DNA of 64,000 nt from positions 1-64,000 of the forward strand of contig JAVJWO010000052.1 of NCBI GenBank assembly GCA_040222015.1. The letters run 5' to 3'. How positions within the stretch are numbered: the stretch's first letter is position 1; each line of letters begins with the position of its first letter. A program made the position numbers and the translations under genes. The notes under the pieces are model-generated. The model had not been told where the DNA came from and did no database searches. It saw nothing but the letters and a program-made list of their open reading frames with translations. Below, piece by piece: positions 23,956 to 40,436 of this stretch. The DNA is from Coleofasciculus chthonoplastes F2-STO-03. Its GTDB lineage: Bacteria; Cyanobacteriota; Cyanobacteriia; Cyanobacteriales; Coleofasciculaceae.

Positions 23956-24303
23956 TTGAAACAACTTGTTGAATTTTCCTTAGACGACGACACCACGTTC
24001 TTCGTTGAGGTAGATGAACCTGAAACGGCGGCGGTGCAACGAGTCGCGTTACCCTCGGGGCGGTTAGCGTTGAAAGCTCAACAGTCCTTTGATCAGGCAC
24101 TTGATACTATTAAACCTGTCGCCTCTAAGATAATTTCCAAACTCAATGACCTCAATACACCCGCCGATGAAGTAGAAGTAAGATTTGGGCTGAAGTTAAC
24201 CGCTGACGCAGGCGCAGTCTTTACCTCAGTCGGTGGCGAAGTCAGCTATGAAATTACCTTGAAATGGAATCAGAGTCAATCTAAAAAACGTGATGGCAGA
24301 TAA
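23956..24303 (+). CDS. Trypco1 (trypsin co-occurring; CU044_2847 family) protein
   Basis: F..ALDTIKPVA...DEVEVRFGLKLTA.AG....ITLKW pattern; overlaps the trypsin gene. Confidence 0.8.
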   Translation: MKQLVEFSLDDDTTFFVEVDEPETAAVQRVALPSGRLALKAQQSFDQALDTIKPVASKIISKLNDLNTPADEVEVRFGLKLTADAGAVFTSVGGEVSYEITLKWNQSQSKKRDGR

Positions 24304-25168
24304 CTCAGCTTACCTAAATGCCTTTAAAACGGGGATTATTCGCATATCCCACGCCAATGGATTCGTGGTTGGGGCAGGATTTCTGGTATCTCCTAATTAT
24401 GTGTTGACCTGCGCTCATTTGGTAGCTCAAGCGCTGACGATTTCCCCAAATACCCCCGATGTGCCGACAGGTTTGATTGACCTAGATTTTCCTTTAATTG
24501 CACCGGGACAGAAAATTAAGGCAAGGGTAGAGTTTTGGCAACCCGTGAATCCTTCAGTAGCCGGAGAAGATATTGCCGGATTGAAAATAGAAGGTGAATG
24601 TCCGCCTGGAGTGCAACCTGTGCGGTTGGTTACAGCCGACGACGTTTGGCAACATCCAGTACGGGTGTTTGGCTTTCCCAGTGGACATAATGATGGCGTT
24701 TGGGCTACGGGGGTAATGCGCGGGGAACTAGGCAATGGGTGGATACAGATGGAAGCGGTTACTGTTACCGGTTATCGGGTAGAACCGGGGTTTAGTGGTG
24801 CGCCAGTGTGGGATGAAACCTTGTCGGGAGTTGTCGGGATGGCGGTAGCGGCGGAACGACAACGGGAGGGGGTTAAGGCGGCGTTTATGATTCCCACAAA
24901 GGTGTTGAGTCAAACTTGGTCGGTTCTTGGTCAATGGGTTCAAACAGGAATGAACACTAAACCCACATTGAGTCGAGTTCAGCAAGTCAAAGCTAGAGCT
25001 TTACAGAACCGTCTGGAAAGTTTAGTCGCTGATTATGAAAATACTTATAACCAATTAAATTATACGCCAAGTGCTGCTGATCGCAACATGATTAAACGAC
25101 GGTGTGATGACATTGAGCAGGAAATGACCGACGCTGAAAACGAACTTGATAGAATTATGAATCATTAA
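24290..25168 (+). CDS. Trypsin-like serine protease effector with C-terminal EAD-like helical adaptor
   Basis: Intact triad LTCAH / EDIA / GFSGAPV; C-terminal ~62 aa homologous to the N-termini of 25289 and 31804. Confidence 0.85.
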   Translation: MMADNSAYLNAFKTGIIRISHANGFVVGAGFLVSPNYVLTCAHLVAQALTISPNTPDVPTGLIDLDFPLIAPGQKIKARVEFWQPVNPSVAGEDIAGLKIEGECPPGVQPVRLVTADDVWQHPVRVFGFPSGHNDGVWATGVMRGELGNGWIQMEAVTVTGYRVEPGFSGAPVWDETLSGVVGMAVAAERQREGVKAAFMIPTKVLSQTWSVLGQWVQTGMNTKPTLSRVQQVKARALQNRLESLVADYENTYNQLNYTPSAADRNMIKRRCDDIEQEMTDAENELDRIMNH

Positions 25169-25288
25169 GTTTAACCATACTCTGACTCCTTTGTTGCCAA
25201 ATCGGGGCGGGTTTAGTTAAGTTAGGGATTTTCCAAAACGTTATCGGTAAAACCCGCCCCTACAGCCCTGCTTCTTATGCCTTAACCA

Positions 25289-26287
25289 ATGCCCAATGCC
25301 CTCAGCACAAAAAAAAAGATGCTTCAGGCTCAGCTTGATGCATTAATCGTAGATTACGAAAGTGTGTATCAGCAATTAAGCCACACAAGGGATAAAGCTG
25401 ATCGCAATCAGTTACAACGGAAAGCGGATGATTTATTTGAGCAGATGGAAAGGGTGGAAGCCCAACTGAATCAATGTCAGTCATCTCATACAACCTACAA
25501 CGATTATTATAAAAACTGGGAAGAACACCTGCCTCAGATTAATTATTCTCAAGCCAGTAAACTGTTTAATCGCATTTTTGACCACTTTGGCGAAAAAGGG
25601 GGCGCTGTCTTTTTCTTACTCCAGAATTGTCATCCCATGGGTGGGAAGTGGTGCATGGAAAAGATTAAGGCTTCTCTCAAGGATAAAGGGGTGTGGAGTC
25701 CTCGTGCGGTCGGCTTTGCCGCCTGGGAAAAGCCGAATCCCACAGATTTTATCCAGCGCTTAGGGACTAGCTTTAATCTGGAAGATAATACCAGTTCTGT
25801 AGAAGTAGCGACTCAACGCCTAATCGATAAAATTTATAACTATTTGCAAATTGACAGCACCGTATTTCTGGAGATTCGACTCTTCTCCCTGGATAGCAAA
25901 TCTGACTTTTTAGCCTGGTTAATTCATCAATTCTGGGTTCCTTTAATCAGCCGCTTGCGATTAATTCGCCAGGAACTTCCCTTAGTTAAATTTGTTGCCG
26001 TTATGGTGGTGGAGACGGAAATGCCTCAAACTTGTCGGTCTCCTGATCTATTTTGTCAAGGGGGTAAGTTGAGTCCTCAGAAGATTATTGAACTAAAACT
26101 AGGCAACTGGACGGAAAAAGAAATCAGAACTTGGTTATATCGATACTCCGGTTTGGCGACGCCTCATGTCGGACGAACGCCAAGGGAAATTGAGCAGATG
26201 TCTCGTATGGTTTACCAAGTGAGTCAAGGTAGACCGATTGATGTTTATAGTTACCTGATGAACGAGTTGACTCGAATTTTCGGTTAA
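25289..26287 (+). CDS. EAD-like adaptor + inactive STAND (iSTAND) protein
   Basis: Shared N-terminal helical domain; P-loop-like strand FFLLQNCHPMGGKW without Walker A GKT; directly upstream of MoxR. Confidence 0.7.
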   Translation: MPNALSTKKKMLQAQLDALIVDYESVYQQLSHTRDKADRNQLQRKADDLFEQMERVEAQLNQCQSSHTTYNDYYKNWEEHLPQINYSQASKLFNRIFDHFGEKGGAVFFLLQNCHPMGGKWCMEKIKASLKDKGVWSPRAVGFAAWEKPNPTDFIQRLGTSFNLEDNTSSVEVATQRLIDKIYNYLQIDSTVFLEIRLFSLDSKSDFLAWLIHQFWVPLISRLRLIRQELPLVKFVAVMVVETEMPQTCRSPDLFCQGGKLSPQKIIELKLGNWTEKEIRTWLYRYSGLATPHVGRTPREIEQMSRMVYQVSQGRPIDVYSYLMNELTRIFG

Positions 26288-26306
26288 GTTTGAGGGAATT
26301 GATGTC

Positions 26307-27239
26307 ATGAATTCGACCACTGAATACAAGTTTCAAGGTAATCCTAAGGCTCGACCAAAATCAGCTCATCCGGATTCTCCCCAAACCCCTGAACCCTATA
26401 TTGCCCCGGATGAATTGATTCAGGCAGTAAATTTGGCAATTTATCTGCGGCGACCGTTATTATTAGAAGGAGAAGCCGGGTGTGGTAAAACGCGATTGGC
26501 TCGTGCGGTGGCGTATGAATTAGGATTACCGTTTTATCGTTGGGATATACGCTCGACGAGTAAAGCTCAAGAGGGTCTTTATCACTATGATGCTATCTTA
26601 CGTTTGCATGATGTGCAGATTCAGCAGTTAGAGACGCTGGACAAGAGTGACCAAAGTCGCAATCCCAGTAATCCCAAATACTATCGCAAATTGGGCGCAT
26701 TGGGGAAAGCGTTTGTGCTGAAATCCTGTCCGGCGGTGGTGTTGATTGATGAAATTGATAAGGCAGATATTGATTTTCCCAATGATTTGCTTGCAGTTTT
26801 AGATGAGCCGTGGGAATTTACGATTCCGGAGACAAGGGAAATTTTTCAGGCTAATTATCCGCCCATTGTGATGATTACCAGTAATAAGGAAAAGGGGAAT
26901 TTACCAGCACCGTTTTTACGCCGTTGTTTATATTATTTTGTTGAATTTCCCAGTCAAGAGCGCTTAAAGGAAATTGTCGCGATTCACTATCAGATGCAGC
27001 AAATGACAGCTCCGGCGAGTGAGTTAGTGGAGACAGCAACAGAACGGTTTATTCAAGTGCGTCAGGAGGGAGGGTTATTTAAGCTTCCCGGAACGAGTGA
27101 ATTTTTAGATTGGTTGAAAGCACTGCAAACCTTTGAAAAGACACCCTATCAGGCAGAAAAATTAGCGGAGGAGAAGCGGCTTCCTTATCGGGAATTATTA
27201 TTTAAGCTGCGGGCGGATTGGCAAAACTATGCTGTATAG
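26307..27239 (+). CDS. MoxR-family AAA+ ATPase (module 1)
   Basis: RPLLLEGEAGCGKT, VVLIDEIDKADIDFPNDLL, LPAPFLRRC. Confidence 0.92.
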   Translation: MNSTTEYKFQGNPKARPKSAHPDSPQTPEPYIAPDELIQAVNLAIYLRRPLLLEGEAGCGKTRLARAVAYELGLPFYRWDIRSTSKAQEGLYHYDAILRLHDVQIQQLETLDKSDQSRNPSNPKYYRKLGALGKAFVLKSCPAVVLIDEIDKADIDFPNDLLAVLDEPWEFTIPETREIFQANYPPIVMITSNKEKGNLPAPFLRRCLYYFVEFPSQERLKEIVAIHYQMQQMTAPASELVETATERFIQVRQEGGLFKLPGTSEFLDWLKALQTFEKTPYQAEKLAEEKRLPYRELLFKLRADWQNYAV

Positions 27240-27379
27240 GTTTATTCGTCATGTATACGCAAAATCGTAGGGTGCGTTAGCAAAGCGTAACGCACCATGT
27301 CTATGACTGTTACTTTAAAAACGGGTAAACCCACTCCGACAATTGCTGACAGACGTGCCATGGCACGTCTCTACATGAT

Positions 27380-28444
27380 GTGAAAAACGATATCATTCAG
27401 CCCATCCTATCTCGCCTATTTAACCGCTTACGTCAAAGTGGATTCAATTTGGGTGTGGGTGAATATCGGGCAGCGCTACAGGCAATTGAAGGGGGCTATG
27501 GGTCAAGTAGCCGGAACGAACTCAAACGGGTGTTAACGTTACTCTGGTGTCATTCCCGCGCCGAACAAAGCCAGTTTCAGTTCATTTGGGAATCGGTAAT
27601 CGCAGACACCTCAACGGTGGAACCGAAACCACCACGCCGCACCTCTAAACCGGAACCCTCACCAGAACCCCAAGATAAACCGCTACCCGCTCCCTCACCT
27701 CAACCTGTAGAATCGGTGCAACCCCAACCCGCTCTAGAATTAGCGCCTTTGCCGGTTCGCGCTCCCTTTACCCCGGTTGAAGCGGAAGATACCCCCCAAC
27801 TACAAACCGATAGACCCATTTCCCGCCGTGCGATGGTTTATAGTTGGCGTTATCTGCGCCGTCCGATTCTGGATGGTCCAGAGGATGTTTTGGATGAGCA
27901 GGCGACGGTGGAAACCGTGGCACGTCAGGGATTTTTTCTCACCCCCGTTTATCGACGCCGGGAACGGAATGCGGCTCATTTGCTGTTGTTAATCGACCAA
28001 GATGGGTCAATGACACCCTTCCATCGTTTTACCCGTGACTTGGTGGAAACGGCGCAATATGAAAGTTCGATTGGGCAAGTGGATGTTAGCTATTTTCACA
28101 ATATTCCGGCAAAAAGCGTTTATCGTGACCCCTATTTGACCCAACCTGTCGTTTTGGAGCGGGTGTTAGCCACCTGTGATAATAACACCAGTATTTTCAT
28201 CGTCAGTGATGCGGGGGCGGCGCGGGGGTATCGGCGGTTAGAGCGAATTCGAGCCACGACGGAGGTATTATTTCAAATTAAGCAACAGACCAATTTGATT
28301 GCTTGGTTAAATCCCATGCCCCAGGAGCGTTGGGGGAGTACCTCAGCTCAACTCATTGCCCATCTGGTGCCAATGTATCCCATGGATAATGATGGATTAA
28401 GTCATGCGATCGATATTGTACGCGGACAGCCGTTGTCACCGTAG
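27380..28444 (+). CDS. vWA (CoxE-like) domain protein (module 1)
   Basis: MIDAS-like LLIDQDGSM, IVSDAGAARG, AWLNPMP..RW. Confidence 0.85.
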   Translation: MKNDIIQPILSRLFNRLRQSGFNLGVGEYRAALQAIEGGYGSSSRNELKRVLTLLWCHSRAEQSQFQFIWESVIADTSTVEPKPPRRTSKPEPSPEPQDKPLPAPSPQPVESVQPQPALELAPLPVRAPFTPVEAEDTPQLQTDRPISRRAMVYSWRYLRRPILDGPEDVLDEQATVETVARQGFFLTPVYRRRERNAAHLLLLIDQDGSMTPFHRFTRDLVETAQYESSIGQVDVSYFHNIPAKSVYRDPYLTQPVVLERVLATCDNNTSIFIVSDAGAARGYRRLERIRATTEVLFQIKQQTNLIAWLNPMPQERWGSTSAQLIAHLVPMYPMDNDGLSHAIDIVRGQPLSP

Positions 28445-28692: not shown

Positions 28693-30291
28693 ATGAATAC
28701 CGCCACTGTACCTAACCGAGATAAGGAAATTGCCAGACAACGGGTGAACCAATTTGTCCGGCGATTTGAGGAATCTTATCGGCTTTTGGCGTATCATGCG
28801 GCACTTCCTTTGGTGTTAACCCCGGAACTGCTCAATTATCTGCGGAATCAATTTCTGCGGGGACAAGTGCCTTGGCTGGCGGAAGTGGATTTGTTGCTCT
28901 CGGAGTTGTGTACTCCGGTGGGGTATGAACTCTATGCCATGGATACCGCCGTTCGTGCCTATTTGCTGGAGGAAATGCATAATGATGCCGCACTCTCCAG
29001 CCAACGGATGCAGGAGGTGGCTCGATTATTGTTAGGGTATGTCCGTCATCTGGCACAGACGAATCCGTTTATTAGTAAACAGGAATTAGAGGCGCAACAG
29101 TGGGCGGCAATGGTGTACCTTGATAACCAGCGAGAGAATGCTGTGCGTCAGATTGTGCAGGCGTTTCAAGAGAGTCGGGCAATCGGGGGAAGTCGCTGGC
29201 AAACCGAAATGGCGCGTTTATCCCGGATTACGCAGGAACTTGCCCCTCAATTAAGGGCTTACCCAAATCTGTTAGAGTATGCCGAGTTAATTACTCGGTT
29301 TGTGGCTGAACCTGAATCAGTGAATCCCGAACCTGGGAAGGATTCCTATCAAGTTCTAGGGGAAACCCTGGAAGTCCCTGGACAATCGGTTACCTACAAG
29401 CTGGAGATTGCCCATGGTAAGAGTTCATTTCCCCCCTTGCAGGTGTTTGAGTTTGGGGTGGTGAGGGTTGATAGAAAGGGGACTATCATTGACAAAACTC
29501 AGAAGCAAACGCAATATTTTCGGGAAGATTTGGGCAATGGTGTCACCTTGGATATGGTGGCGATTCCTGGAGGGTCATTCATGATGGGTTCTCCAGAAAC
29601 GGAAGAAAAACACAGAGATAGTGAAAGTCCTCAGCATTCGGTAACGGTTCAACCCTTTTTCATGGGGAAATACCCGGTGACTCAGGCGCAATGGCAGGCG
29701 GTTGCTAATCTGCCTCAAGTGGATAAAAAACTTGACCCTGACCCGTCCGGATTTAAAGGATCAGATCGACCCGTTGAGCAAGTATCGTGGTATGATTGCG
29801 TGGAGTTTTGTGCGCGGTTGTCGCAGTACACAGGACGAGACTACCGACTTCCTAGTGAAGCCGAGTGGGAATATGCTTGTCGTGCGGGAACAACAATGCC
29901 GTTTCATTTTGGCGAAACAATTACCACAGATTTAGCCAATTACAACGGCAACTATACTTATGCTGAAGGTCATAAGGGTGAGTATCGTGAACAGACTATC
30001 CCAGTCAGGAGTTTTCAGGTTGCGAACGCCTTTGGCTTATTTGACATGCATGGAAATGTGTGGGAATGGTGTGCTGACCATTGGCATGATAGTTATGAAG
30101 GTGCGCCGTCGGATGGTCAAGCTTGGTTAATTAATAATGATAATAAGAATCATTCTCGGCTGTTGCGCGGTGGTTCGTGGGTCAACTATCCCTGGTACTG
30201 TCGTTGTGCCTATCGCATCGGGGTTACCCCAGACAGCAGGGGCAACGGCAGCGGGTTTCGGGTTGTCTGTGGTGCGGCGTGGACTCTTTAG
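28693..30291 (+). CDS. Receptor 1: vWA-partner helical domain + FGE-sulfatase (CLec-fold) domain; DGR target gene
   Basis: F.MGS, RLPSEAEWEYACRAG, NAFGLFDMHGNVWEW, RGGSW...GFRVV; 3' variable region; avd fragment immediately downstream. Confidence 0.88.
   Translation: MNTATVPNRDKEIARQRVNQFVRRFEESYRLLAYHAALPLVLTPELLNYLRNQFLRGQVPWLAEVDLLLSELCTPVGYELYAMDTAVRAYLLEEMHNDAALSSQRMQEVARLLLGYVRHLAQTNPFISKQELEAQQWAAMVYLDNQRENAVRQIVQAFQESRAIGGSRWQTEMARLSRITQELAPQLRAYPNLLEYAELITRFVAEPESVNPEPGKDSYQVLGETLEVPGQSVTYKLEIAHGKSSFPPLQVFEFGVVRVDRKGTIIDKTQKQTQYFREDLGNGVTLDMVAIPGGSFMMGSPETEEKHRDSESPQHSVTVQPFFMGKYPVTQAQWQAVANLPQVDKKLDPDPSGFKGSDRPVEQVSWYDCVEFCARLSQYTGRDYRLPSEAEWEYACRAGTTMPFHFGETITTDLANYNGNYTYAEGHKGEYREQTIPVRSFQVANAFGLFDMHGNVWEWCADHWHDSYEGAPSDGQAWLINNDNKNHSRLLRGGSWVNYPWYCRCAYRIGVTPDSRGNGSGFRVVCGAAWTL
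30157..30291 (+). repeat. DGR variable region VR1
   Basis: Against 40293-40436, 20 of 21 mismatches in the 24-codon core fall at codon positions 1-2. Confidence 0.8.
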
Positions 30292-30357
30292 CCCTTGACA
30301 CTTTTGCCCTTTTACCCTCTACCCTGTTTTCTTTTCCCTCTTCCCGCCGCAGGCGGG
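30292..30357 (+). promoter_or_regulatory. Putative DGR cis-element: pyrimidine-rich IMH-like tract + hairpin CCCGCC-GCA-GGCGGG (30343-30357)
   Basis: Perfect 6-bp GC stem with a 3-nt G-N-A loop, ~50 nt after the VR; could also act as a terminator (T-tract follows). Confidence 0.6.
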
Positions 30358-30438
30358 TCGATTTTTTTTGAGATTTATACCCAATGGCAATCGTCTGCCG
30401 GAATATCTCCTGTAACTTTTTAATGTACGATTGAGTCT

Positions 30439-30585
30439 GTGAGCGATTTACCGATTATCCAGAAAACCTACGATTTGATTCGCTGGTACATCCCGATTCT
30501 TAACCGCCTGCCGCGAAATCATAAGTTTCTCTTAGGGGATCGGATCATTAGTAGATTGTATGATCTTTTAGACGGATTGATTATA
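30439..30585 (+). pseudogene. avd: 5' fragment of DGR accessory protein Avd
   Basis: MSDLPIIQKTYDLIRWYIPILNRLPRNHKFLLGDRI...LYDLLDGLII is the typical cyanobacterial Avd N-terminus; the frame runs into repeat DNA after codon 49. Confidence 0.82.
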
Positions 30586-30623
30586 AATTATAGCACGGCA
30601 ATTTGTAAGGGCACGGCAATGCC

Positions 30624-30763
30624 CATGGGTGTCAACTTAAGGTGCAAACTAATACTGACAAGGTTTTAAGCTGTGTCTGTCTACTCCTCGACATTTCCCC
30701 CTCATCCCCTAACCCCTTCTCCCACCGTGGGGAGAAGGGGTTGAGCTTAAGTTGACACGGATG
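30624..30763. mobile_element. MITE (GTGTCAACTTAAG TIR) flanked by the 9-bp duplication GGCAATGCC
   Basis: GGCAATGCC at 30615-30623 and 30764-30772; an uninterrupted copy of the host palindrome lies at 56899-56927. Confidence 0.75.
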
Positions 30764-30924
30764 GGCAATGCCGTGCCCCTACCATTGGTAATACCAAACC
30801 GCCTTTGAAACCCCTTTTTTGCCTTGGCGAGGAGTAAGTCGCAGCTACACAAGCAAAGTCCGCCTGCGCGGACTAGATTATAAAGAGGGTGGCTAACCCG
30901 GATTTGGTATAACTCGGTATTAGG

Positions 30925-31027
30925 TAAGCTGTAATGCATTTAAATTGGGTATTAGTAGCGAGCAAGATGCTCGCACTACAAGGATTGTGCAATTATTGAT
31001 ATTAAGGTTTAAATGCCGAACAGCTTA
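30925..31027. mobile_element. 103-bp MITE-like repeat (TAAGCTGT...ACAGCTTA), copy 1
   Basis: Near-identical inverted copy at 31645-31747; third copy at 44753-44863. Confidence 0.8.
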
Positions 31028-31153
31028 TCGGGATATTTTCTCTGCTTGTATTTTCACAACAGTACTGGTTGCAGCATCTGGGTTGTCTTCGCAAATGTAG
31101 GCATGAAGCTGCTCAAGGTTGCGTAGTGCTTTACGTAACCATCTAACGTCCAT
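31025..31153 (-). pseudogene. Truncated RelE/ParE toxin
   Basis: MDVRWLRKALRNLEQLHAYICEDNPDAA... (42 aa); the stop codon is supplied by the MITE end. Confidence 0.7.
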
Positions 31154-31385
31154 GGGTCAACCGAGTAAAGACGGCGGTTACCTCGTCTTCACTGGCGAAA
31201 TCCCCAGCATCGGCTTCAGCGATACCCTGCTGAATCTCTTGCAGTTGCCACTGATGCATTTCCAGGTAAGCATTGATTGCCTGATTCAATACATAGGTTA
31301 AATTACGATCCATACCAGCAGCAATAGCATCCAGTGCAGCTCTCTTATTTGGATCAAGTCGAAAGGTTACATTTTCCTTGCTCAT
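31143..31385 (-). CDS. CopG/RHH antitoxin (80 aa)
   Basis: MSKENVTFRLD...LDAIA...DR...LNQAI...WQ..EI..GIAEADAGDFAS. Confidence 0.8.
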   Translation of the reverse strand: MSKENVTFRLDPNKRAALDAIAAGMDRNLTYVLNQAINAYLEMHQWQLQEIQQGIAEADAGDFASEDEVTAVFTRLTHGR

Positions 31386-31471
31386 CAGACACGTCCTTCG
31401 TTGAGGGTTGGTTGAAATGCAGCAGCACTCTTTTATCATGCACTGTATTGCATTGCATTGCAAAAAGAACG

Positions 31472-31597
31472 TTACCTGACTGGATTCGGGTACGAACCGA
31501 AAACCTGCACCGCGCCAGACGCCGCATCCGCCGCCTACAAACGGACTACAATCAGGGTAAAACCGGTCAAGCGGTTGACCAATCCCTACAAAGCTAG
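31472..31597 (+). pseudogene. C-terminal fragment of DGR reverse transcriptase
   Basis: LPDWIRVRTENLHRARRRIRRLQTDYNQGK...QSLQS* resembles the segment after FLGFR in cyanobacterial DGR RTs; strand and order relative to avd fit. Confidence 0.65.
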
Positions 31598-31644
31598 GCA
31601 GTCGGTGACGATATGCGAAAATCAAACTAGGTTGGGTCGCCTGG

Positions 31645-31747
31645 TAAGCTGTTCGGCATTTCAACCTTAATATCAATAATGGCACAATCCTTGTAGTGCG
31701 AGCATCTTGCTCGCTACTAATACCCAATTTAAATGCATGACAGCTTA
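31645..31747. mobile_element. 103-bp MITE-like repeat, copy 2 (inverted)
   Basis: Reverse complement of 30925-31027 with a few mismatches. Confidence 0.8.
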
Positions 31748-31803
31748 AGCTCATGCTGAACGGTTATCCAACGCCTAAAATAACTTAGGAATTTGTTTCG
31801 AGA

Positions 31804-33165
31804 ATGGTATTCAATCGGTCTGTGCAAGTTAGGATCAGGTGTTTACAGCGTCGCTTTGATTTACTCGAACAGAACTATACTGATATATCGGAGCAATTGA
31901 ACTATGAAAGCAATGCTCAGAATCGGAATAATTTAAAACGACAGCTTGCTCACCTGGAAAAAGAGATGACAATCGTTGAGGACGAACTCAACACTCTTGA
32001 ACGGGGAAACGTAGGAGATAAAACTCAGCGCCTTATGGCTATTTTAGCCTCTGTTGATCCGCCAACAACCCAACGGATCAAGGCAGCTTACCTAGCATCT
32101 CGCCCTTCCAGCTGGAGTGATTTTCGTCCCGCCATTCCCCCCACAATCGAACAACTGTTGGCAGATTTAGCTGATATGCCTTCTGGGGATAGTGGGTACA
32201 AGCGAATGGATCAGTTTGTGGCACATTTAATTGCCGATGATCAAATTCCTCAGTCCTTGCGTCAACAGTTACACGATTGGCTGAAGCAAAACGTTGATGA
32301 TATTGCTCCATTACTAACTCAAATTAAACCTGAAACCGACCCAGAACAATTTTATCTCATGGTATGGATTCAGCCCAGCCAGCAAAAAAAGAATTGTTAT
32401 TTTATCAAAGCCTGGTTAGCGATTCCTCGCCCATCGAATCAGGGAGAAAGCAACTATGACTACGAACCCATTTCTCTAGCCAATACTGAAGCCGAACCCG
32501 TTTCCTTGACTCAGATTCCCCAGTTACTCAAAGAAATTCTGATTCAAAGTAGCCAAAAATGTGCGATGAGTGACTTAACCCTGGAATTTTTCTTACCTCG
32601 TCAGTTACTTAATCATGATGTTGATCGGTGGGAAATTGAGATCAGTGAGGATTTGTTAATTCCCCTTGGCGTGGAATGTAGCGTTGTCGTGCGTTCTGAG
32701 GAGCGACTTTCACCAAATTATTGTCTCAAAAAGAAAGATTGGCAGAAAAAATGGCAGCGACTCAAGCGACTTAACCATTACCCTTCCTCTAAACTTGTTG
32801 CTTCAGGGGATTGTGCTTGGAATCAACTCTATGTTGAGTTAAGAAAAGAGGATATTCTTGGCTGTACTCTAGCCAAGGTTCCCCAACCGATGGGAAAAGA
32901 AAGCGTTTTTAATGTGATTTTAGGGACAGCGATACCTTTAGCGATATGGGTACGGTGTAATTTAGCGCATTTAAATTGTTCCCAAGAATTAAATCAATTA
33001 TTAACGTGTTGTATTTCTGAACTTCCAACTACGATAAAAGGAAAACGGGAAGCGGCTTTTGCGTCTCATCCCCACCTGCGCGGACTGCATATTGGCTCTC
33101 ATCTTTCCCTGATGTGGGAAGATCCCGATCGCGTCCCACCTACGATTCACTATTCTACACCTTAA
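31804..33165 (+). CDS. VMAP (vWA-MoxR associated protein) with N-terminal EAD-like adaptor
   Basis: VMAP-C motifs LEFFLPRQLLNHDVDRW, VVVRS.ERL, WQKKW, PLAIW.R, LMWEDPDR.PP; upstream of MoxR. Confidence 0.8.
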   Translation: MVFNRSVQVRIRCLQRRFDLLEQNYTDISEQLNYESNAQNRNNLKRQLAHLEKEMTIVEDELNTLERGNVGDKTQRLMAILASVDPPTTQRIKAAYLASRPSSWSDFRPAIPPTIEQLLADLADMPSGDSGYKRMDQFVAHLIADDQIPQSLRQQLHDWLKQNVDDIAPLLTQIKPETDPEQFYLMVWIQPSQQKKNCYFIKAWLAIPRPSNQGESNYDYEPISLANTEAEPVSLTQIPQLLKEILIQSSQKCAMSDLTLEFFLPRQLLNHDVDRWEIEISEDLLIPLGVECSVVVRSEERLSPNYCLKKKDWQKKWQRLKRLNHYPSSKLVASGDCAWNQLYVELRKEDILGCTLAKVPQPMGKESVFNVILGTAIPLAIWVRCNLAHLNCSQELNQLLTCCISELPTTIKGKREAAFASHPHLRGLHIGSHLSLMWEDPDRVPPTIHYSTP

Positions 33166-33559
33166 AAACAATGGCACTAAGAATTTGCATTTTTGGATCA
33201 CCGACATTCTTGATATATCGTAGGGTGGGCATTGCCCACCAACCTTAATTCATACCAAGTTGTAGTCTAAAGTAGAATCTGTCATGCTGAGCAGAATGCA
33301 GTGAAACGGAATGACGCGAAGCATCTGTCCAGATTCTCGTATCTCGTTCCTCGCTTCACGCTTCGCTTCACGCTTCGCTCAGAATGACATGATAGAACGC
33401 AACTTGGTATCAGTACCATTCAGCTTAAAAACCTTGGCGGGGCGTAGGGCGCACGTCGGGAAAAGGGCGCACGTCGGTCATCGGGCGCACGTCGGTGCGC
33501 CCCTACAATTGTAATCGATAAATTTAATGGCATAATGCTTTTAATCATCACAATAAACA

Positions 33560-34567
33560 ATGAATAATGAGCAATCAAAAAATTGGCAGATTTTTCAGGG
33601 AACCGGAACTCCCCACAGCGAAATAAATCGCCTTCCGCCCCCTCCAAGCTGGCGTCAATTTGATGGACTAGCAGATGGTGCTACCGCCGCCAAAAAGCAG
33701 CAACGGGGGGCTACGTTTCAGGCGCGTCCAGAGGAAATTGAACTCGTTAATGCAGCACTGTATTTACGACGCCCTCTATTAGTCACTGGAAAACCGGGAA
33801 CGGGAAAAACCTCACTGGCTTATGCGATCGCGTATGAATTACAATTAGGAGAAGTGTTAAGGTGGTCAATTACTACGCGCACCAATCTCAACGATGGACT
33901 TTACCGCTATGATGCCATTGGTCGCTTACAAGATGCCCAAGGTAAGGGTGAAGATAACTTAGAGGAGATTGGTCAGTATATCCGGTTAGGTCCTCTGGGA
34001 ACCGCTTTGCTTCCCTCTGATAAACCCAGGGTATTACTAATTGATGAAATTGACAAAAGCGATATTGATTTACCCAATGATTTGCTGCATATTTTTGAGG
34101 AAGGAGAGTTTGAGATTCCGGAGTTGGTTCGGATTGCTGGCAGATTAGAACAAGTGGAAGTTCGTACCGCTTATGGCGATGAGACGGAGATAACGGCGAA
34201 CGATTTCAAGACAGTTATTAGCAAAGGACGAGTCCGCTGTCAAGCTTTTCCGTTTGTGATTTTAACGAATAATGGAGAGCGAGATTTTCCGCCACCGTTT
34301 TTACGTCGCTGTCTGCGGCTGAATATGAGGGAACCCAATCAGGATGAACTCACCCGAATTGTTAAAGCGCATTTGGGTGAAAAAGTGGCGGATAAAGCCA
34401 AGGGTTTGATTGCTCATTTTTTAAAGAAGCGAGAACAGGGAGATTTAGCTACGGATCAGTTACTTAATGCGATTTATTTACTTACTCGTGAACGGATACC
34501 ATCAGGTCAAGAAAAAGCGAAGTTAGTTGAGCAATTGCTCAAGTATTTGAGTAGTACAGAAGATTGA
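33560..34567 (+). CDS. MoxR-family AAA+ ATPase (module 2)
   Basis: PPPPSWR, GKPGTGKT, LLIDEIDKSDIDLPNDLL, FPPPFLRRC. Confidence 0.92.
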   Translation: MNNEQSKNWQIFQGTGTPHSEINRLPPPPSWRQFDGLADGATAAKKQQRGATFQARPEEIELVNAALYLRRPLLVTGKPGTGKTSLAYAIAYELQLGEVLRWSITTRTNLNDGLYRYDAIGRLQDAQGKGEDNLEEIGQYIRLGPLGTALLPSDKPRVLLIDEIDKSDIDLPNDLLHIFEEGEFEIPELVRIAGRLEQVEVRTAYGDETEITANDFKTVISKGRVRCQAFPFVILTNNGERDFPPPFLRRCLRLNMREPNQDELTRIVKAHLGEKVADKAKGLIAHFLKKREQGDLATDQLLNAIYLLTRERIPSGQEKAKLVEQLLKYLSSTED

Positions 34568-34801
34568 TTCCTGTCCTTAGATAGCCCTCACCCCCAACCC
34601 CTCTCCCAAGGGTGGGAGAGGGGAGCAAGAGTATGTAGCAAGAGTATGTAGGGTGGGCAAGAATGATAAATCTGGAAATGCTTATAGTATCGTTAATTGC
34701 TCTTGCCCACCTCACGGTAACTGGCTTTGACTATAGGGTTCTTTATGGAATATAAATGGTGCGTTACGCTTCTCTAACGCACCCTACGATTCTGAGTTTA
34801 T

Positions 34802-35449
34802 TTATCTCATATTGTCAGAAGTTGATAGATGAATAAGTTTTTTTAAGATTCTCAAGACATCACCTAAACCATTTTTGCGATTGCCAATTCCAAACAAATC
34901 AGACATGGCATACAGAGGGGTAGCGGCTTTGACTAATTTGAGAAACAGAAAACTTCCTCCATTCGTAATCATACCGAAGCTAGGTTGCTCTGAATTAAGG
35001 TTTCCTAGCATATAGGCAAGAATTTGGGCTAATCCAGCTTCGACAGAGAAATGAGCTTGTTTTGATTCAATTACCATCACCCAAAGTTTGTCTTTCAAAA
35101 CTAAGGTGTCGAGGTTCCCTTTGACGAGAATTCCTAGTTCTTCATCTTGGGCGGAGATTTGGACACTGCTCTCGGCTCTTAAATTCAAAGGCGCTAAATA
35201 AAATTGTCCGATAAATAATAAGGGGGAGACAACTGCCAAATTAATGGGTTTTTCTAGCAGGGGTGGTTGTTTGAGTAAATTGAAATAGCCAGCGCGGACT
35301 TGTTCGAGAAGTTGTTTTTGCCAGTCGGTGAGTTCGGGTAAGTCGGATTGCCACTCCGGGAAAAACTGTTCATCGTCAACTCGCTGAAGCTGAAAGTAGG
35401 TTTCTAATTGTTCTAGAGTGACATCTCTGGCTTGAATGGTTTGAACCAT
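34802..35449 (-). CDS. HsdR-N-like PD-(D/E)XK restriction-endonuclease-fold protein
   Basis: GNLD...VIESK...QILAYM...GMITNG pattern. Confidence 0.7.
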   Translation of the reverse strand: MVQTIQARDVTLEQLETYFQLQRVDDEQFFPEWQSDLPELTDWQKQLLEQVRAGYFNLLKQPPLLEKPINLAVVSPLLFIGQFYLAPLNLRAESSVQISAQDEELGILVKGNLDTLVLKDKLWVMVIESKQAHFSVEAGLAQILAYMLGNLNSEQPSFGMITNGGSFLFLKLVKAATPLYAMSDLFGIGNRKNGLGDVLRILKKLIHLSTSDNMR

Positions 35450-35576
35450 ACTATAAAAGAATAGGGGATAAAGTTTTGTACTAGGTTGTTGATTGGCTTT
35501 AGAGGAATTGTAGCTTAAGTGGGATAAGGCAGAAGGAAAGAAAGAAGTTTAGAGAAAATCTGCTGTACAATGTGCC

Positions 35577-35599
35577 TATGATTCAACAGGCGATCGCAC
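35577..35599 (+). repeat. 23-bp direct repeat TATGATTCAACAGGCGATCGCAC (also 36321-36343 and 36438-36460, the start of the vWA gene)
   Basis: Three exact copies, each containing HIP1. Confidence 0.85.
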
Positions 35600-35824
35600 G
35601 ACTCAATCGGCTTCTGTGGGCGCACGTCGGTTATTGGTGTCAAGTTAAGCTACAGCCGTCACGCCTATGCCTGTCTCCCAAGCGTGACAGAGGAGAGCAA
35701 TAGGGCAGACGTAGCCTCATTCTCAGGTTTTAGAAGGGAATGAATCGCCGCCAAATCATTGCATTTGTTTGCCTGGTAATTTTCAGCCTACAATAGACCC
35801 AGAAAGCCGTTCTATGAGCAGAAT

Positions 35825-36013
35825 ATGGAAGCCATCAATATAAAAGAAGAGGCACGACGATTGATTGATAGATTGCCAGAGAATGCGACATGGGATGACT
35901 TAATGTATGAAATTTATGTCAGGGTAGCGATAGAAGCGGGACTTGCGGATAGTCAGGCGGGTAGAATAACCTCTGTGGAAACAGTGCGTCAGCAATTCGG
36001 ATTACCAACGTGA
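35825..36013 (+). CDS. Antitoxin
   Basis: KEEARRLIDRLPENATWDDLMYEIYVR..IEAGLAD; overlaps the toxin start. Confidence 0.75.
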   Translation: MEAINIKEEARRLIDRLPENATWDDLMYEIYVRVAIEAGLADSQAGRITSVETVRQQFGLPT

Positions 36014-36312
36014 AGGTTTTTTGGACAGATACAGCCGTCAAGCATCTTTCCGGGATTTATGCCTACATCGCCCAAAATTCACCTCAATATGGGCGTCGAA
36101 TGGTTGATCGTCTGACGAGACGTTCGGAACAGATTGCTGCGTTTCCGGCTTCAGGTCGAATGGTGCCAGAGTTTGAGAGGGAACAAATTCGTGAAGTGAT
36201 TGAGGGTTCTTATCGGATTATTTACTACATTAAACCCGAGCAAATCGATGTACTTGCTGTGATCCATGGTTCGCAACAAATCACTGAAGATTATTCCCCA
36301 TCATCGGAGTAA
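36010..36312 (+). CDS. RelE/ParE-family toxin
   Basis: VFWT..A...L..I..YIA..SP...GR.VPE...IRE....YRIIY...VIHG. Confidence 0.85.
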   Translation: MKVFWTDTAVKHLSGIYAYIAQNSPQYGRRMVDRLTRRSEQIAAFPASGRMVPEFEREQIREVIEGSYRIIYYIKPEQIDVLAVIHGSQQITEDYSPSSE

Positions 36313-36438
36313 AATGTCCGTATGATTCAACAGGCGATCGCACGTTTCAATCTAGTTTTCTGGGTGCAGGTTGGGGTTGGGGTTGGGATTGGGCGCACGT
36401 CAGTGCGCCCCTACGAGGCTCATTGATTTCTATTCTCT

Positions 36439-39400
36439 ATGATTCAACAGGCGATCGCACTCCTTAATCAGGTTGGCTTAGAACTTACGGCAGAAGAGAT
36501 TGCCGATATCTTTTGGTTGGCGCTGCAAATGGGGGAAACGGAATCCGTCTCCGAGTCTCCATCTATCCCGAAAACGCCCTTATCTGAACGCCCCATAACT
36601 GAAGACTTCTCCCCAGAAACGCCGCCGATAAATTTAAATCCACCAACTACTACGGCTAGCGAACCCTACGCTGAACTCTATCCCTCTCCTCCACCTGCTT
36701 CTATCCCCCAGTCTGATTCTCATTCTCCGCCATCTGCTTCTTCTCCATCCCCTCAGCTAGATTCTCCCCCACCGTCTCAACTCCTTCCCTTTGAAACGCC
36801 AGCCGCCCCCGCCCTGCGGAATCCTTTAGCCATCGCCCGGGCAATTCGTCCCCTGATGCGGAAAGTCCCATCTCGTACTGAAACCATTCTGGATGAAGAA
36901 GCCACAGCCCGACAAATTGCCGAAAAAAATATCTGGATTCCGGTGCTAGAACCTGCACCCGAACGCTGGTTAGAATTAGCGCTGGTTATTGAGGAATCGA
37001 GTTCTCTCCCAATTTGGCAAGAAACGATTACAGAATTGCAAACGCTGTTGGAACGCCAAGGTGCGTTTCGCGATGTCCGCACCTGGCGCTTAAATGCTGA
37101 TGCCGATGAGTCATTGTACCTCTTGCCGGGACAGGGTTCAGCCACACTCAAACAACGCCCCCGCAATCCCAAGGAATTGATTGATCCCTCAGGGCGGCGG
37201 TTAATTCTCCTGGTTAGCGACTGTGTATCTGATATCTGGCGTTCAGGCAAAATCCAGACTCTGTTGCGGCGGTGGGCAAATCAGAATCCCGTGTCAGTGC
37301 TTCAGTTATTACCCGAATCCTATTGGAGACGCAGTGGTTTAGGTGCAGGGATTTCCGTGCAACTGGGGGCGTTTGCACCAGGAGTTCCCAATTCCCAACT
37401 GGTAATTGAAGAGATACCCCCCTGGCTGGAGGTGAATTTAGCCACAGCATTACCATTACCTGTGGTAACACTGGAGCCTGAACCTTTGGCACAGTGGGCG
37501 CGGCTGGTGGCGGGTACAGGGGGAACGCGGATGCCGGGAGTGTTATTTGATCCGGCGTTAATGGAGGCGATGGCTGAGGAGATGGAACAGATAATCGCCT
37601 CATGTTCAGCATCAGAGTTAGTCCAGCACTTTCGGGCAACGGCGTCTCCCACCGCCCGACGCTTGGCAGGGTTAATGGCGGCGATTCCGGTAACGTTGCC
37701 TGTGGTGCGTCTGATTCAGGAAACCATGCTGCCAGAATCGGGGCAGATTCATATTGCTGAAGTGTTTATGAGTGGGTTATTGCGTCCCATTTTAGAAGGG
37801 AATGGTAATTCACCAGATGGGAAAAACCTCTCTCCAAACCTCTCTCCTGCAAGGAGAGAGGCTTTGAATGATCCCCCTTCCTACCCCTTCGTGGAAGCAA
37901 GCTACGCAGGAAAGGGGGCTGGGGGGTTAAGTTTTTCCCATCAATCTGAACCTATTTACTATGATTTTCAACCCGGAGTGCGGGAATTGTTGCTGGATTC
38001 TATTCCCATTTCCGATACCGATGAAGTGTTGGAACAAGTGTCTCAGTTTATCGCCCGTAAAGCCGGGGTTTCGATTAAGAGCTTTACCGCGTTCCTCTCG
38101 CCTTATGCCAAATGGGATGAAACGGTGCAGCAGCAGATTGCGCCCTTCGCTCAGGTTACCCGTCAGGTTCTGCGGCGGTTGGGAGGAGAGTATGCGGCGT
38201 TAGCGGAGCAGTTGGAACGACGTTCTCCGGTTATTCCTGATATCTCAGATAATGAGGCTTCTGGGTTTCCTCCCTTACAAACCTTTACGTTTGAAGAGGT
38301 AACTATCTCCCTTAAAGCTGAGACAGAAACCGCCCTTGATCTGCAAGCATTTGATTTTAAAGTGGCAAAGATACAGATACGGAATGCTGTTAAAACTGCT
38401 GAGGAAGCCGTTTTTGCTATGACAGGACGATCATTTAACGATATTCAAAAAGGTATCCTAGGAGGAGCATTAAAAAATAAAACCTACGAAGAAATAGCGG
38501 TTTCAGGATTATACAGCTCAGAGTATGTGAAATCTATAGGCGCTAAGTTATGGAAATTACTGACAGAAGCGTTGAATCAAAAAGTTAGTAAAACTAATCT
38601 GAATGCTGTGTTAGGCAAGGGATTAACGATTCACCATTTTCAGCAACAAGCTTGGAGTTTTACCGAGGATTTAGGTAAAGGAATTCAACTAGAGATGGTA
38701 GCCATTCCCGAAGGTAGCTTTGTCAGGGGGGCACCAGAGGACGAAACTGGACGGGAAAACTCTGAATCTCCTCAGCATACGGTCACAGTTAATTCCTTTT
38801 TTATGGGTAAATACACCATAACCCAGGCACAATGGCAAATCGTAGCTGATCTACCGCGAGTTAATCGTGAACTTGAACCTGATCCATCTGAGTTTAAAAG
38901 TGCAAACCGCCCTGTAGAGAATGTGTCCTGGTATGATGCTATGGAATTTTGCGATCGCCTTTCTCAGAAAACTGGACGACTCTATCGCCTACCCAGTGAA
39001 GCCGAGTGGGAGTATGCCTGTCGTGCGGGAACAACCACCCCATTTCATTTTGGAGAAACAATTACAATCGACTTGGCGAATTACCGAGGTACGGATGACA
39101 AAAGAAGGGGTTGGTCAGGTTCCTATGGTCAAAGTCCCAAAGGGATTGATCGTCAAGAAACAACTCCTGTAGGTAGCTTTAAGGTGGCTAATGATTTTGG
39201 ACTCTACGATATGCATGGGAATGTATGGGAATGGTGTGCTGACCCTTGGCACGAAAACTATGAAGGTGCGCCAACAGATGGCAGGGTGTGGAAGGATGAT
39301 AATGATCATGATAATGAGCATCGGGTATTGCGGGGCGGTTCCTGGTTTGACTTTCCTGTAAACTGCCGTTGCGCGTGTCGCTTCCATTATTCTTCAAATG

Positions 39401-39450
39401 ACAGGAACGTCCCCGTTATGGGTTTTCGAGTTGTATGCGCCGCCGAGTAG
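36439..39450 (+). CDS. Receptor 2: SAV_2336-type vWA protein fused to an HTH and an FGE-sulfatase/CLec domain
   Basis: EEIADIFWLA, LDEEATA, LALVIEESSS, LILLVSDCVS..W; C-terminal FGE motifs. Confidence 0.85.
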   Translation: MIQQAIALLNQVGLELTAEEIADIFWLALQMGETESVSESPSIPKTPLSERPITEDFSPETPPINLNPPTTTASEPYAELYPSPPPASIPQSDSHSPPSASSPSPQLDSPPPSQLLPFETPAAPALRNPLAIARAIRPLMRKVPSRTETILDEEATARQIAEKNIWIPVLEPAPERWLELALVIEESSSLPIWQETITELQTLLERQGAFRDVRTWRLNADADESLYLLPGQGSATLKQRPRNPKELIDPSGRRLILLVSDCVSDIWRSGKIQTLLRRWANQNPVSVLQLLPESYWRRSGLGAGISVQLGAFAPGVPNSQLVIEEIPPWLEVNLATALPLPVVTLEPEPLAQWARLVAGTGGTRMPGVLFDPALMEAMAEEMEQIIASCSASELVQHFRATASPTARRLAGLMAAIPVTLPVVRLIQETMLPESGQIHIAEVFMSGLLRPILEGNGNSPDGKNLSPNLSPARREALNDPPSYPFVEASYAGKGAGGLSFSHQSEPIYYDFQPGVRELLLDSIPISDTDEVLEQVSQFIARKAGVSIKSFTAFLSPYAKWDETVQQQIAPFAQVTRQVLRRLGGEYAALAEQLERRSPVIPDISDNEASGFPPLQTFTFEEVTISLKAETETALDLQAFDFKVAKIQIRNAVKTAEEAVFAMTGRSFNDIQKGILGGALKNKTYEEIAVSGLYSSEYVKSIGAKLWKLLTEALNQKVSKTNLNAVLGKGLTIHHFQQQAWSFTEDLGKGIQLEMVAIPEGSFVRGAPEDETGRENSESPQHTVTVNSFFMGKYTITQAQWQIVADLPRVNRELEPDPSEFKSANRPVENVSWYDAMEFCDRLSQKTGRLYRLPSEAEWEYACRAGTTTPFHFGETITIDLANYRGTDDKRRGWSGSYGQSPKGIDRQETTPVGSFKVANDFGLYDMHGNVWEWCADPWHENYEGAPTDGRVWKDDNDHDNEHRVLRGGSWFDFPVNCRCACRFHYSSNDRNVPVMGFRVVCAAE

Positions 39451-39563
39451 AGTTTGTAATCTTTGCCCTTTTATTGTCCTTCTTACTTATACGTAGCGTT
39501 AGCTAAATTTTCTTGCCTCTGTTGTTCAACTATTAAGCATATTGAATCTAAGGTGACAAAACT

Positions 39564-40436
39564 ATGGCAACACCGCAAATCAGTAATCAAGGACAGCAGA
39601 CTAGGTTTATTGTTAAGCGTCGGCAGCGACAGGCTCAATATTTCAGCGAAGACTTGGGCAATGGTATCTTCCTGGATATGGTGGCGATTCCTGGAGGGTC
39701 ATTCCTGATGGGTTCTCCGGAAACGGAAGAAGGACACAGAGATAGTGAAAGTCCCCAGCATCCAATAACGGTTCCACCCTTTTTCATGGGGAAATACCCG
39801 GTGACTCAAGCGCAATGGCGGGCGGTTGCTCATCTGCCTCAAGTTGATAAAGAACTTGACCCTGATCCATCTAGATTTAAAGGAGCCGATCAACCAGTTG
39901 AGGGAGTATCGTGGTATGACTGTGTAGAGTTTTGTGCGCGGTTATCGCAGTACACAGGACGAGACTACCGACTTCCTAGTGAAGCCGAGTGGGAATATGC
40001 CTGTCGTGCGGGAACAACAACGCCGTTTCATTTTGGCGAAACAATTAATACGGATTTAGCCAATTACAACGGCAAACGTATTTATGCTGAAGGTCATAAA
40101 GGTCATAAGGGTGAGTATCGTAAAAAGACTACCCCAGTCGGGAGTTTTCAGGTAGCGAATGCCTTTGGCTTATTCGATATGCATGGAAATGTGTGGGAAT
40201 GGTGTGCTGATCATTGGCATGATAGTTATGAAGGTGCGCCGTCGGATGGTCAAGCTTGGCTATTAGATAACAATAAAAATGAGAATCATTATCGGCTGAT
40301 GCGCGGTGGTTCGTGGTACGCCTTTCCCAGGAACTGTCGTTGTGCGTATCGCCTCAGGAATACCCCAGACTACGGGAACAACACCGTCGGGTGTCGGGTC
40401 GTCTGTGGTGCGGTGTGGACTCCTTTGCCCCCTTGA
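39564..40436 (+). CDS. Receptor 3: stand-alone FGE-sulfatase/CLec protein; DGR target-like
   Basis: Near-duplicate of the C-terminal domain of 28693..30291 with a different VR. Confidence 0.85.
   Translation: MATPQISNQGQQTRFIVKRRQRQAQYFSEDLGNGIFLDMVAIPGGSFLMGSPETEEGHRDSESPQHPITVPPFFMGKYPVTQAQWRAVAHLPQVDKELDPDPSRFKGADQPVEGVSWYDCVEFCARLSQYTGRDYRLPSEAEWEYACRAGTTTPFHFGETINTDLANYNGKRIYAEGHKGHKGEYRKKTTPVGSFQVANAFGLFDMHGNVWEWCADHWHDSYEGAPSDGQAWLLDNNKNENHYRLMRGGSWYAFPRNCRCAYRLRNTPDYGNNTVGCRVVCGAVWTPLPP
40293..40436 (+). repeat. DGR variable region VR3
   Basis: Colinear with VR1; differences concentrated at NNC/NNT/NGG codons. Confidence 0.75.

Follow-up and report, generated by a model that had tools for sequence, protein, structure and literature searches.

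How does a bacterium come to carry freshly varied tips on predicted receptors when the machinery that writes such tips is reduced to stubs in its genome? The locus that raises this question lies in the window analysed here, a 64,000-nt stretch of contig JAVJWO010000052.1 of the cyanobacterium Coleofasciculus chthonoplastes F2-STO-03, and consists of two C-type lectin (CLec) genes with short, paralogous tips, VR1 and VR2 (Table 1). In a diversity-generating retroelement (DGR), a cassette of avd, a reverse transcriptase (RT) gene and a template repeat (TR) supplies TR RNA, the RT errs at adenines, and the resulting cDNA replaces the variable repeat (VR) of a target gene. We found that both tips are, by their sequence, VRs written from one DGR TR family through adenine-specific mutagenesis, that the cassette behind VR1 is dead, and that VR1 continued to turn over among strains sharing this dead cassette, probably in trans, while VR2 froze. 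Below, G numbers are genomes (G000 is the window's own assembly), C218, C136 and C158 are contigs of G000, L104 and L105 are metagenome contigs, P numbers are proteins from public assemblies, and X1–X4 are sequencing runs of other samples whose contigs were compared.

An earlier, sequence-only reading of this DNA had counted 14 unlike codons and 21 mismatches between the two 24-codon tips, 20 of them at codon positions 1 and 2, and ungapped alignment reproduced these figures exactly (12/8/1 at positions 1, 2 and 3). The remainder of the two domains is highly similar, as that reading had also stated, with 91% identity over the 600 nt 5' of each tip. Across 196 codons of the domain bodies, the 17/11/26 differences by codon position follow an ordinary pattern, and the bias of the tips against the bodies (p = 3.4e-4) bears out the claim that the tips show the reverse of neutral drift.

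From the two tips alone, the same reading had rebuilt an 87-nt TR and proposed that the real one sits beside avd and RT. We scanned the metagenome collection for exact matches to a 32-base part of this prediction and found two contigs, L104 and L105, which may represent one population. Both contain a kinase-CLec target, an avd scoring above the NF033474 cut-off, a 352-aa RT with a YVDD motif and a non-coding TR, identical in the two contigs. This is a complete target-avd-RT-TR locus with an adenine-specific VR, the cis VR departing from its TR at 18 of 30 adenines and 1 of 96 other sites. Compared by eye, the reconstruction agrees with the real TR at 85 positions and fails at two (window-equivalent 30210 and 30211, the latter a site where both VRs carry the same non-A base); its one remaining ambiguity is a C in the real TR.

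Measured against this TR (L104:3735-3860), 20 of the 21 differences between VR1 and VR2 fall on its adenines (30 A in 72 nt; hypergeometric p = 1.7e-9), as adenine-specific mutagenesis predicts. Seven of these 20 fall inside the 32 nt that the search pattern had fixed and give no independent evidence; outside it, 13 of the 14 differences over 43 nt are at one of the 21 adenines (p = 5.9e-5). VR1 differs from the TR at 16/30 adenines and 2/96 other sites (p = 2.4e-10), VR2 at 13/30 and 6/96, and a third VR in the assembly, at the end of a kinase-CLec gene on contig C218, at 15/30 and 3/96, each of these other-site counts including the boundary base where TR and VR diverge. VR1 and VR2 thus depart from the TR almost only at adenines, and both form the 3' end of a CLec-fold gene (PF03781, with a match to TvpA), as DGR targets do. 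Positive selection on the ligand-binding residues of paralogues, with no retroelement involved, would also favour changes at codon positions 1 and 2. It would not predict that VR1 and the paralogous C218 tip agree at all 41 non-A third positions, when the bodies of the two genes differ at position 3 in 45 of 155 codons for identical residues. Such homogenisation is a mark of overwriting from a common template, and together with a real TR found beside avd and RT, the mapping of differences to its adenines, and the avd and RT stubs adjoining VR1, it refutes ordinary positive selection, to which we give practically no credence.

The stubs behind VR1 are the remains of a cassette. VR1 is followed by a GC-rich segment, unlike its counterpart in the TR (IMH*), which may act as the initiation of mutagenic homing (IMH) site, a role assigned by analogy with passages of Wu et al. 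(PMC5758913), and by a GC hairpin that is perfect in 7 of the 10 VR1 and kinase loci compared and weakened by a mismatch or wobble in L104 and G002. Loci differ in the orientation of the hairpin loop, a triplet in some and the reverse complement in others, and the stem is preserved; a cruciform that works on either strand or has flipped would give this. The avd stub retains 86% nt identity to the live avd and has unrelated repeats at its 3' side. The RT stub shows 65–70% aa identity to a DGR RT and 82–84% nt identity to the L104 RT, and its best match is P0033 (27/29 aa). At the join 31598/31601, 296 nt of the live cassette are skipped, namely the RT end, the whole TR and part of the spacer. 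G002 has the remnant with identical joins, and G007 shares the avd stub, filler and RT stub; against these two genomes the avd stub of G000 is 8–10%, its filler 5% and its RT stub 5–7% divergent, contig ends having been checked for the partial avd matches of G000, G002 and G007. The filler (31042-31456), about 415 nt of unrelated DNA within the dead cassette, is 95% conserved in G002 and G007, and we found no second copy in the genome and no Pfam match (minus-strand open reading frame 31143-31754). This decayed remnant, the third VR on C218 and the non-equivalence of the two tips go beyond the sequence-only reading.

We detected no intact avd, RT or TR in the strain's own genome, which therefore holds stubs and no complete DGR. 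Blastn at word size 7 with both VRs, two foreign TRs and the live cassette matched only coding VRs in the assembly, and tblastn of the assembly found no TR either. The check proposed at the outset, Blastn of the inferred TR against genome and relatives, looked for a non-coding copy beside avd and RT: such a copy exists in relatives and was not found in the strain's own genome. The four RVT_1 matches in G000 (two group II-like RTs, one RT-Cas1 fusion and one unrelated RT) were rejected as donors at 27–30% identity. As for two of these loci, G000:C215:4025-6301 is the RT-Cas1 fusion, which adjoins a CRISPR array, and G000:C151:8049-8678 encodes a 452-aa RT that looks neither group II- nor DGR-like and lies next to a helicase. 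TRs of other cyanobacterial DGRs (G017, G042) fitted poorly, G017 leaving 18–19 non-A differences. Only 3 of 52 genomes of the family contain an Avd above the curated cut-off, and the best match to the cassette in the genome-contig collection was 79%.

Live cassettes persist in other lineages. Public assemblies contain 10 RT proteins 94–100% identical to the L104 RT, one of them named Coleofasciculus, and cassette-linked targets (P0011-P0014) differ by 0–0.5% outside the VR while 13–19 of 24 VR codons differ in five of six pairs. One of these, P0012, looks partly frameshifted: its VR opens in a shifted frame of the template and goes back into frame further on, the result of either a pair of indels left by retrohoming or a fault of the assembly. 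The L104 cassette begins beside a beta-glucosidase gene, in an accessory region whose siderophore-uptake genes G000 lacks. At this site G003 (L038) keeps the kinase target without a cassette, and C136 has a truncated beta-glucosidase gene with neither target nor cassette. On this synteny we rejected the L104 target as an orthologue of the C218 kinase gene; it is a paralogue. A second live copy probably resides at the window's own locus in another lineage, as P0033 and P0006 (an Avd among them) and orthologues of three operon genes all list one 39,676-bp longest contig, the co-location being read from this shared figure alone.

VR1 itself was unlike in every strain seen. It differs at 19–20 of 30 A sites from G002 and G007, whose dead cassette it shares, at 13/24 codons from P0016 and at 16/24 from P0017. 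P0017, encoded on a 7.78-Mb contig, has a single unlike residue among the 496 upstream of the VR when set against the VR1 protein, and its allele recurs on a contig of run X1 that runs through the same avd truncation. Of the 49 differences between X1 and the window, 26 of those listed lie inside the VR, 24 of these at TR adenines, and the other 23 are for the most part without an assigned position (X1 covers neither the VR2 gene nor 31500-31583, gaps that carry no weight). A near-identical upstream sequence, a shared broken avd and a rewritten VR together suggest that VR1 was likely rewritten in trans. Just 3' of the VR in P0017/X1 (window 30253-30290) is a 6-residue insertion like a frame-shifted duplicate of the IMH-like segment, which, read from the protein, may be the trace of a cDNA that integrated imprecisely. 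At the kinase locus without a cassette the picture is similar: G000, G003, G005, G006 and G007 have the same downstream junction and all-distinct alleles, and among G000, G003 and G005, 97–98.5% identical downstream, 20–23 of 30 A sites nonetheless differ. In G000 the constant GGSW motif that immediately precedes the kinase VR has Pro in place of Ser (C218:6728), which may be a sign of decay.

VR2, in contrast, is a frozen tip. Three of its six non-A changes lie in the IMH-like segment, one turning Phe to Cys, and no hairpin was seen 3' of it. Its sequence is identical in G003, whose gene body is 3.3% divergent, and in P0018-P0020, which show 5–6% amino-acid divergence outside it; a piece from X4 across VR2 differs at 3 of 232 nt. 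It is likely that VR2 was disabled at an earlier stage. In G002 (C51:348850-359000, L034), the single VR2 gene gives way to a tandem array: about six CLec genes, of which some are broken, each with its own drifted VR; the five tips scored have 15–21 non-A differences to the L104 TR and form an archive of frozen tips.

These observations suggest a history in which a cassette once stood behind VR1, and its whole TR and the greater part of avd and RT were gone by the time that G000, G002 and G007 separated. Another copy, placed as at the kinase-CLec/beta-glucosidase site of L104/L105, likely kept serving VR1 and the C218 tip in trans: its TR RNA would have been copied by an RT error-prone at adenines, and the cDNA would have replaced the VR, with the IMH and hairpin as anchors. 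G000 lacks this copy at the corresponding site, C136. We put a probability of roughly 0.6 on such trans retrohoming from a since-lost cassette as the source of VR1 turnover, and all tips in this assembly are predicted to be static now unless a cassette went unassembled or is re-acquired. Several observations weigh against it. We infer the donor rather than observe it, as no live cassette was seen alongside a VR1 with the dead cassette: an intact RT or TR occurs in none of the nine genus genomes, and none of the 10 close RTs lists the 7.78-Mb contig from which P0017 comes. Position 30210, the one VR1/VR2 difference off an adenine, is T in the L104 TR, C, G or T among VRs and A in X1, so that the L104 TR is a close allele and perhaps not the actual writer, and other TR alleles may carry adenine there. 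The G002 VR1 has 9 non-A differences, which fits another TR or decay. P0016 equals the VR1 protein up to residue 270 and then differs at 28 positions from 271 to 489, which demonstrates that recombination moves CLec domains at this locus, where CLec bodies are 7–10% divergent against 2–5% for the flanks.

The domain swap in P0016 and the raised divergence of CLec bodies speak for an alternative in which all alleles arose in cis, in lineages with a cassette, and spread to strains without one as homologous recombination or gene conversion replaced the CLec tip, with no need for trans retrohoming in the G000 lineage; the avd stub is likewise more divergent than the flanks, and intact avd and RT apparently persist at this locus elsewhere (P0033 and P0006, by the 39,676-bp figure only). 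To yield P0017/X1, however, an exchanged tract would need its start only a few codons from the VR and its end ahead of the dead avd stub, some 190–330 nt downstream; these are the boundaries that retrohoming gives, and no allele is shared between genomes or loci among the 10 VR1 and kinase alleles compared. We regard this course as unlikely. It is less probable still that a live cassette hides in the draft of 219 contigs, or visits on an unlinked replicon or island, and that VR1 is still diversifying. VR1 is indeed pristine, with one internal non-A change and an intact hairpin, RTs of this clade occur on six cyanobacterial plasmids at 67–73% identity, and the L104/L105 cassette lies in an accessory region. 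Yet the assembly is 99.99% complete by markers and contains no N, the cassette is missing in all nine genus genomes, the viral contigs (best RT 40%) and plasmids searched gave no close RT or cassette, and the donor region is absent mid-contig at C136. Beyond the trans retrohoming that we prefer for VR1, a wider conjecture, which we hold only tentatively and think doubtful, is hit-and-run hypermutation: a rare, repeatedly lost avd-RT-TR mutator module would be kept by a minority of Coleofasciculus lineages, and most strains would keep pristine landing pads with their hairpin, to be randomised afresh whenever a cassette arrives.

Table 1. Features of the window, with positions counted from its first base
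Feature	Position	Strand	Remarks
Operon ahead of target gene 1	23956-28444		trypsin-EAD9, EAD9-iSTAND, MoxR, vWA; PF19962, PF19995, PF00004, PF05762
Target gene 1	28693..30291	+	532 aa, C-terminal FGE-sulfatase/CLec, PF03781 E 6e-60
VR1, 24 codons	30181..30252	+	TR homology 30157-30281
IMH-like GC-rich constant segment and stop	30253..30291	+	parts from the TR's IMH*-like copy at 30282
GC-only hairpin	30343..30357	+	6-bp stem, 3-nt loop, then T run
avd 5' stub	30439..30582	+	48 of ~119 codons, NF033474 E 2e-15 (below cut-off), PF22296
DGR RT stub	31457..31598	+	C-terminal part, broken frame
Remnant of spacer 3' of TR	31601..31650	+	43/48 nt identical to L104:3936-3983
vWA(SAV_2336)-FGE gene of second (VMAP-C/MoxR) operon	36439..39450	+	from domain matches
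Older VR-like tip of vWA-FGE gene, other length class	near 39322-39448	+	frozen
Target gene 2	39564..40436	+	stand-alone FGE-sulfatase/CLec, 290 aa, PF03781 E 3e-60
VR2, 24 codons	40317..40388	+	frozen fossil, 6 non-A changes

The two targets belong to a twin locus. Its first half runs from a CU044_2847-family gene through trypsin-EAD9, EAD9-iSTAND, MoxR-type AAA and vWA genes to target gene 1, the last gene of that operon; the second comprises EAD9-VMAP-M1-VMAP-C, MoxR, a small insert with a ParE gene, SAV_2336/vWA-FGE and target gene 2. MoxR AAA+, vWA, an iSTAND or VMAP-C adaptor and effector domains in one operon are the hallmarks of MoxR-vWA ternary conflict systems, and the CLec domain would be the sensor of such a system, a receptor role that is predicted. 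Pfam and PDB sequence matches identify the CLec fold, target gene 2 matching the DGR target TvpA (PDB 2y3c) at E 4e-18. The VR codons are predicted to lie at the ligand-binding face, where the 24 codons could by computation yield about 10^16.7 protein variants, none with a stop codon. The tip of the vWA-FGE gene is identical in P0021-P0023 and, compared with two TRs, A-biased yet with 18–25 non-A differences. Between MoxR and vWA-FGE in the second operon lie an HSDR_N (restriction-enzyme-like) gene and the ParE toxin gene (34802-36312). A third ternary locus (G000:C158:16282-21670) has three CLec genes; set against two TRs, their tips show an A bias but also 20–25 non-A differences; in the 7.78-Mb strain one of these tips is identical (P0192) and another unlike (P0183). 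Cluster members of the twin-locus proteins bear the source label Coleofasciculus.

Published work already covers the system class, cyanobacterial ternary systems diversified by DGRs, remote targets and the loss of cassettes. Kaur et al. (2020; PMC7159879) described cyanobacterial MoxR-vWA ternary systems of VMAP and iSTAND types with FGS effectors and DGRs, about 80% of cyanobacterial and gammaproteobacterial VMAP systems being DGR-associated, the TR lying either close by or at another genomic site. Our locus shares with them MoxR, vWA, the VMAP-C or iSTAND adaptor, trypsin, EAD9 and an FGS/CLec effector with a variable C-terminus; unlike them, it lies in an assembly without a TR, its cassette is a deletion remnant, and its iSTAND operon has the CLec as a separate gene behind the vWA gene. 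An anti-invader function has been proposed for ternary systems (PMC7159879, PMC10907252). Vallota-Eastman et al. (2020; PMC7517822) reported cyanobacterial DGRs with CLec targets, 76 of them remote, and an orphan paralogue in Nostoc PCC 7120 for which they suggested that diversification components were removed after variant selection. Kinase-CLec and stand-alone CLec targets, remote or orphan, occur here as well; that survey dealt with genomes having complete cassettes, its main text does not include Coleofasciculus, and its passages considered here do not treat the strain-level timing of loss against rewriting. In Thiohalocapsa PB-PSB1 (Dore et al. 2024, PMC10907252), incomplete DGR loci lie beside ternary systems, trans activity was deduced from agreement at non-A sites with the TR of another locus, both intact and disrupted variants segregate, and one matching target is invariant. 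In that organism the genome itself contains the donor TR, and diversity was measured in sequencing reads, whereas here the donor occurs only in other lineages. The IMH, hairpin and remote targets were defined for the DGR of Bordetella BPP-1 (PMC5758913, Wu et al. 2018), and as in that element and Treponema denticola TvpA we find a VR, IMH, GC hairpin, avd, RT, TR with IMH*, an FGE-type CLec fold and remote targets; the order target-avd-RT-TR differs, and the targets sit in a cellular conflict locus rather than in phage fibres or surface lipoproteins. Our literature search found no paper on a Coleofasciculus DGR or on orphan or lost templates, with the proviso that supplements of the cited papers may list the genus.

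A lost TR was rebuilt from two orphan VRs and then used to find the living element, a clean validation of this approach. Cases of this kind are missed by surveys that require an RT beside the target, just as RT-adjacent surveys miss remote targets (PMC8144416). If hit-and-run hypermutation were true, one mutator would be common to many cassette-less genomes, like hitch-hiking contingency mutators. The order of events, with cassette death, continued rewriting of VR1 and a frozen VR2, is rarely seen and makes it testable how multicellular cyanobacteria without a cassette keep their predicted sensors diverse, whether by trans retrohoming, visiting cassettes or recombination.

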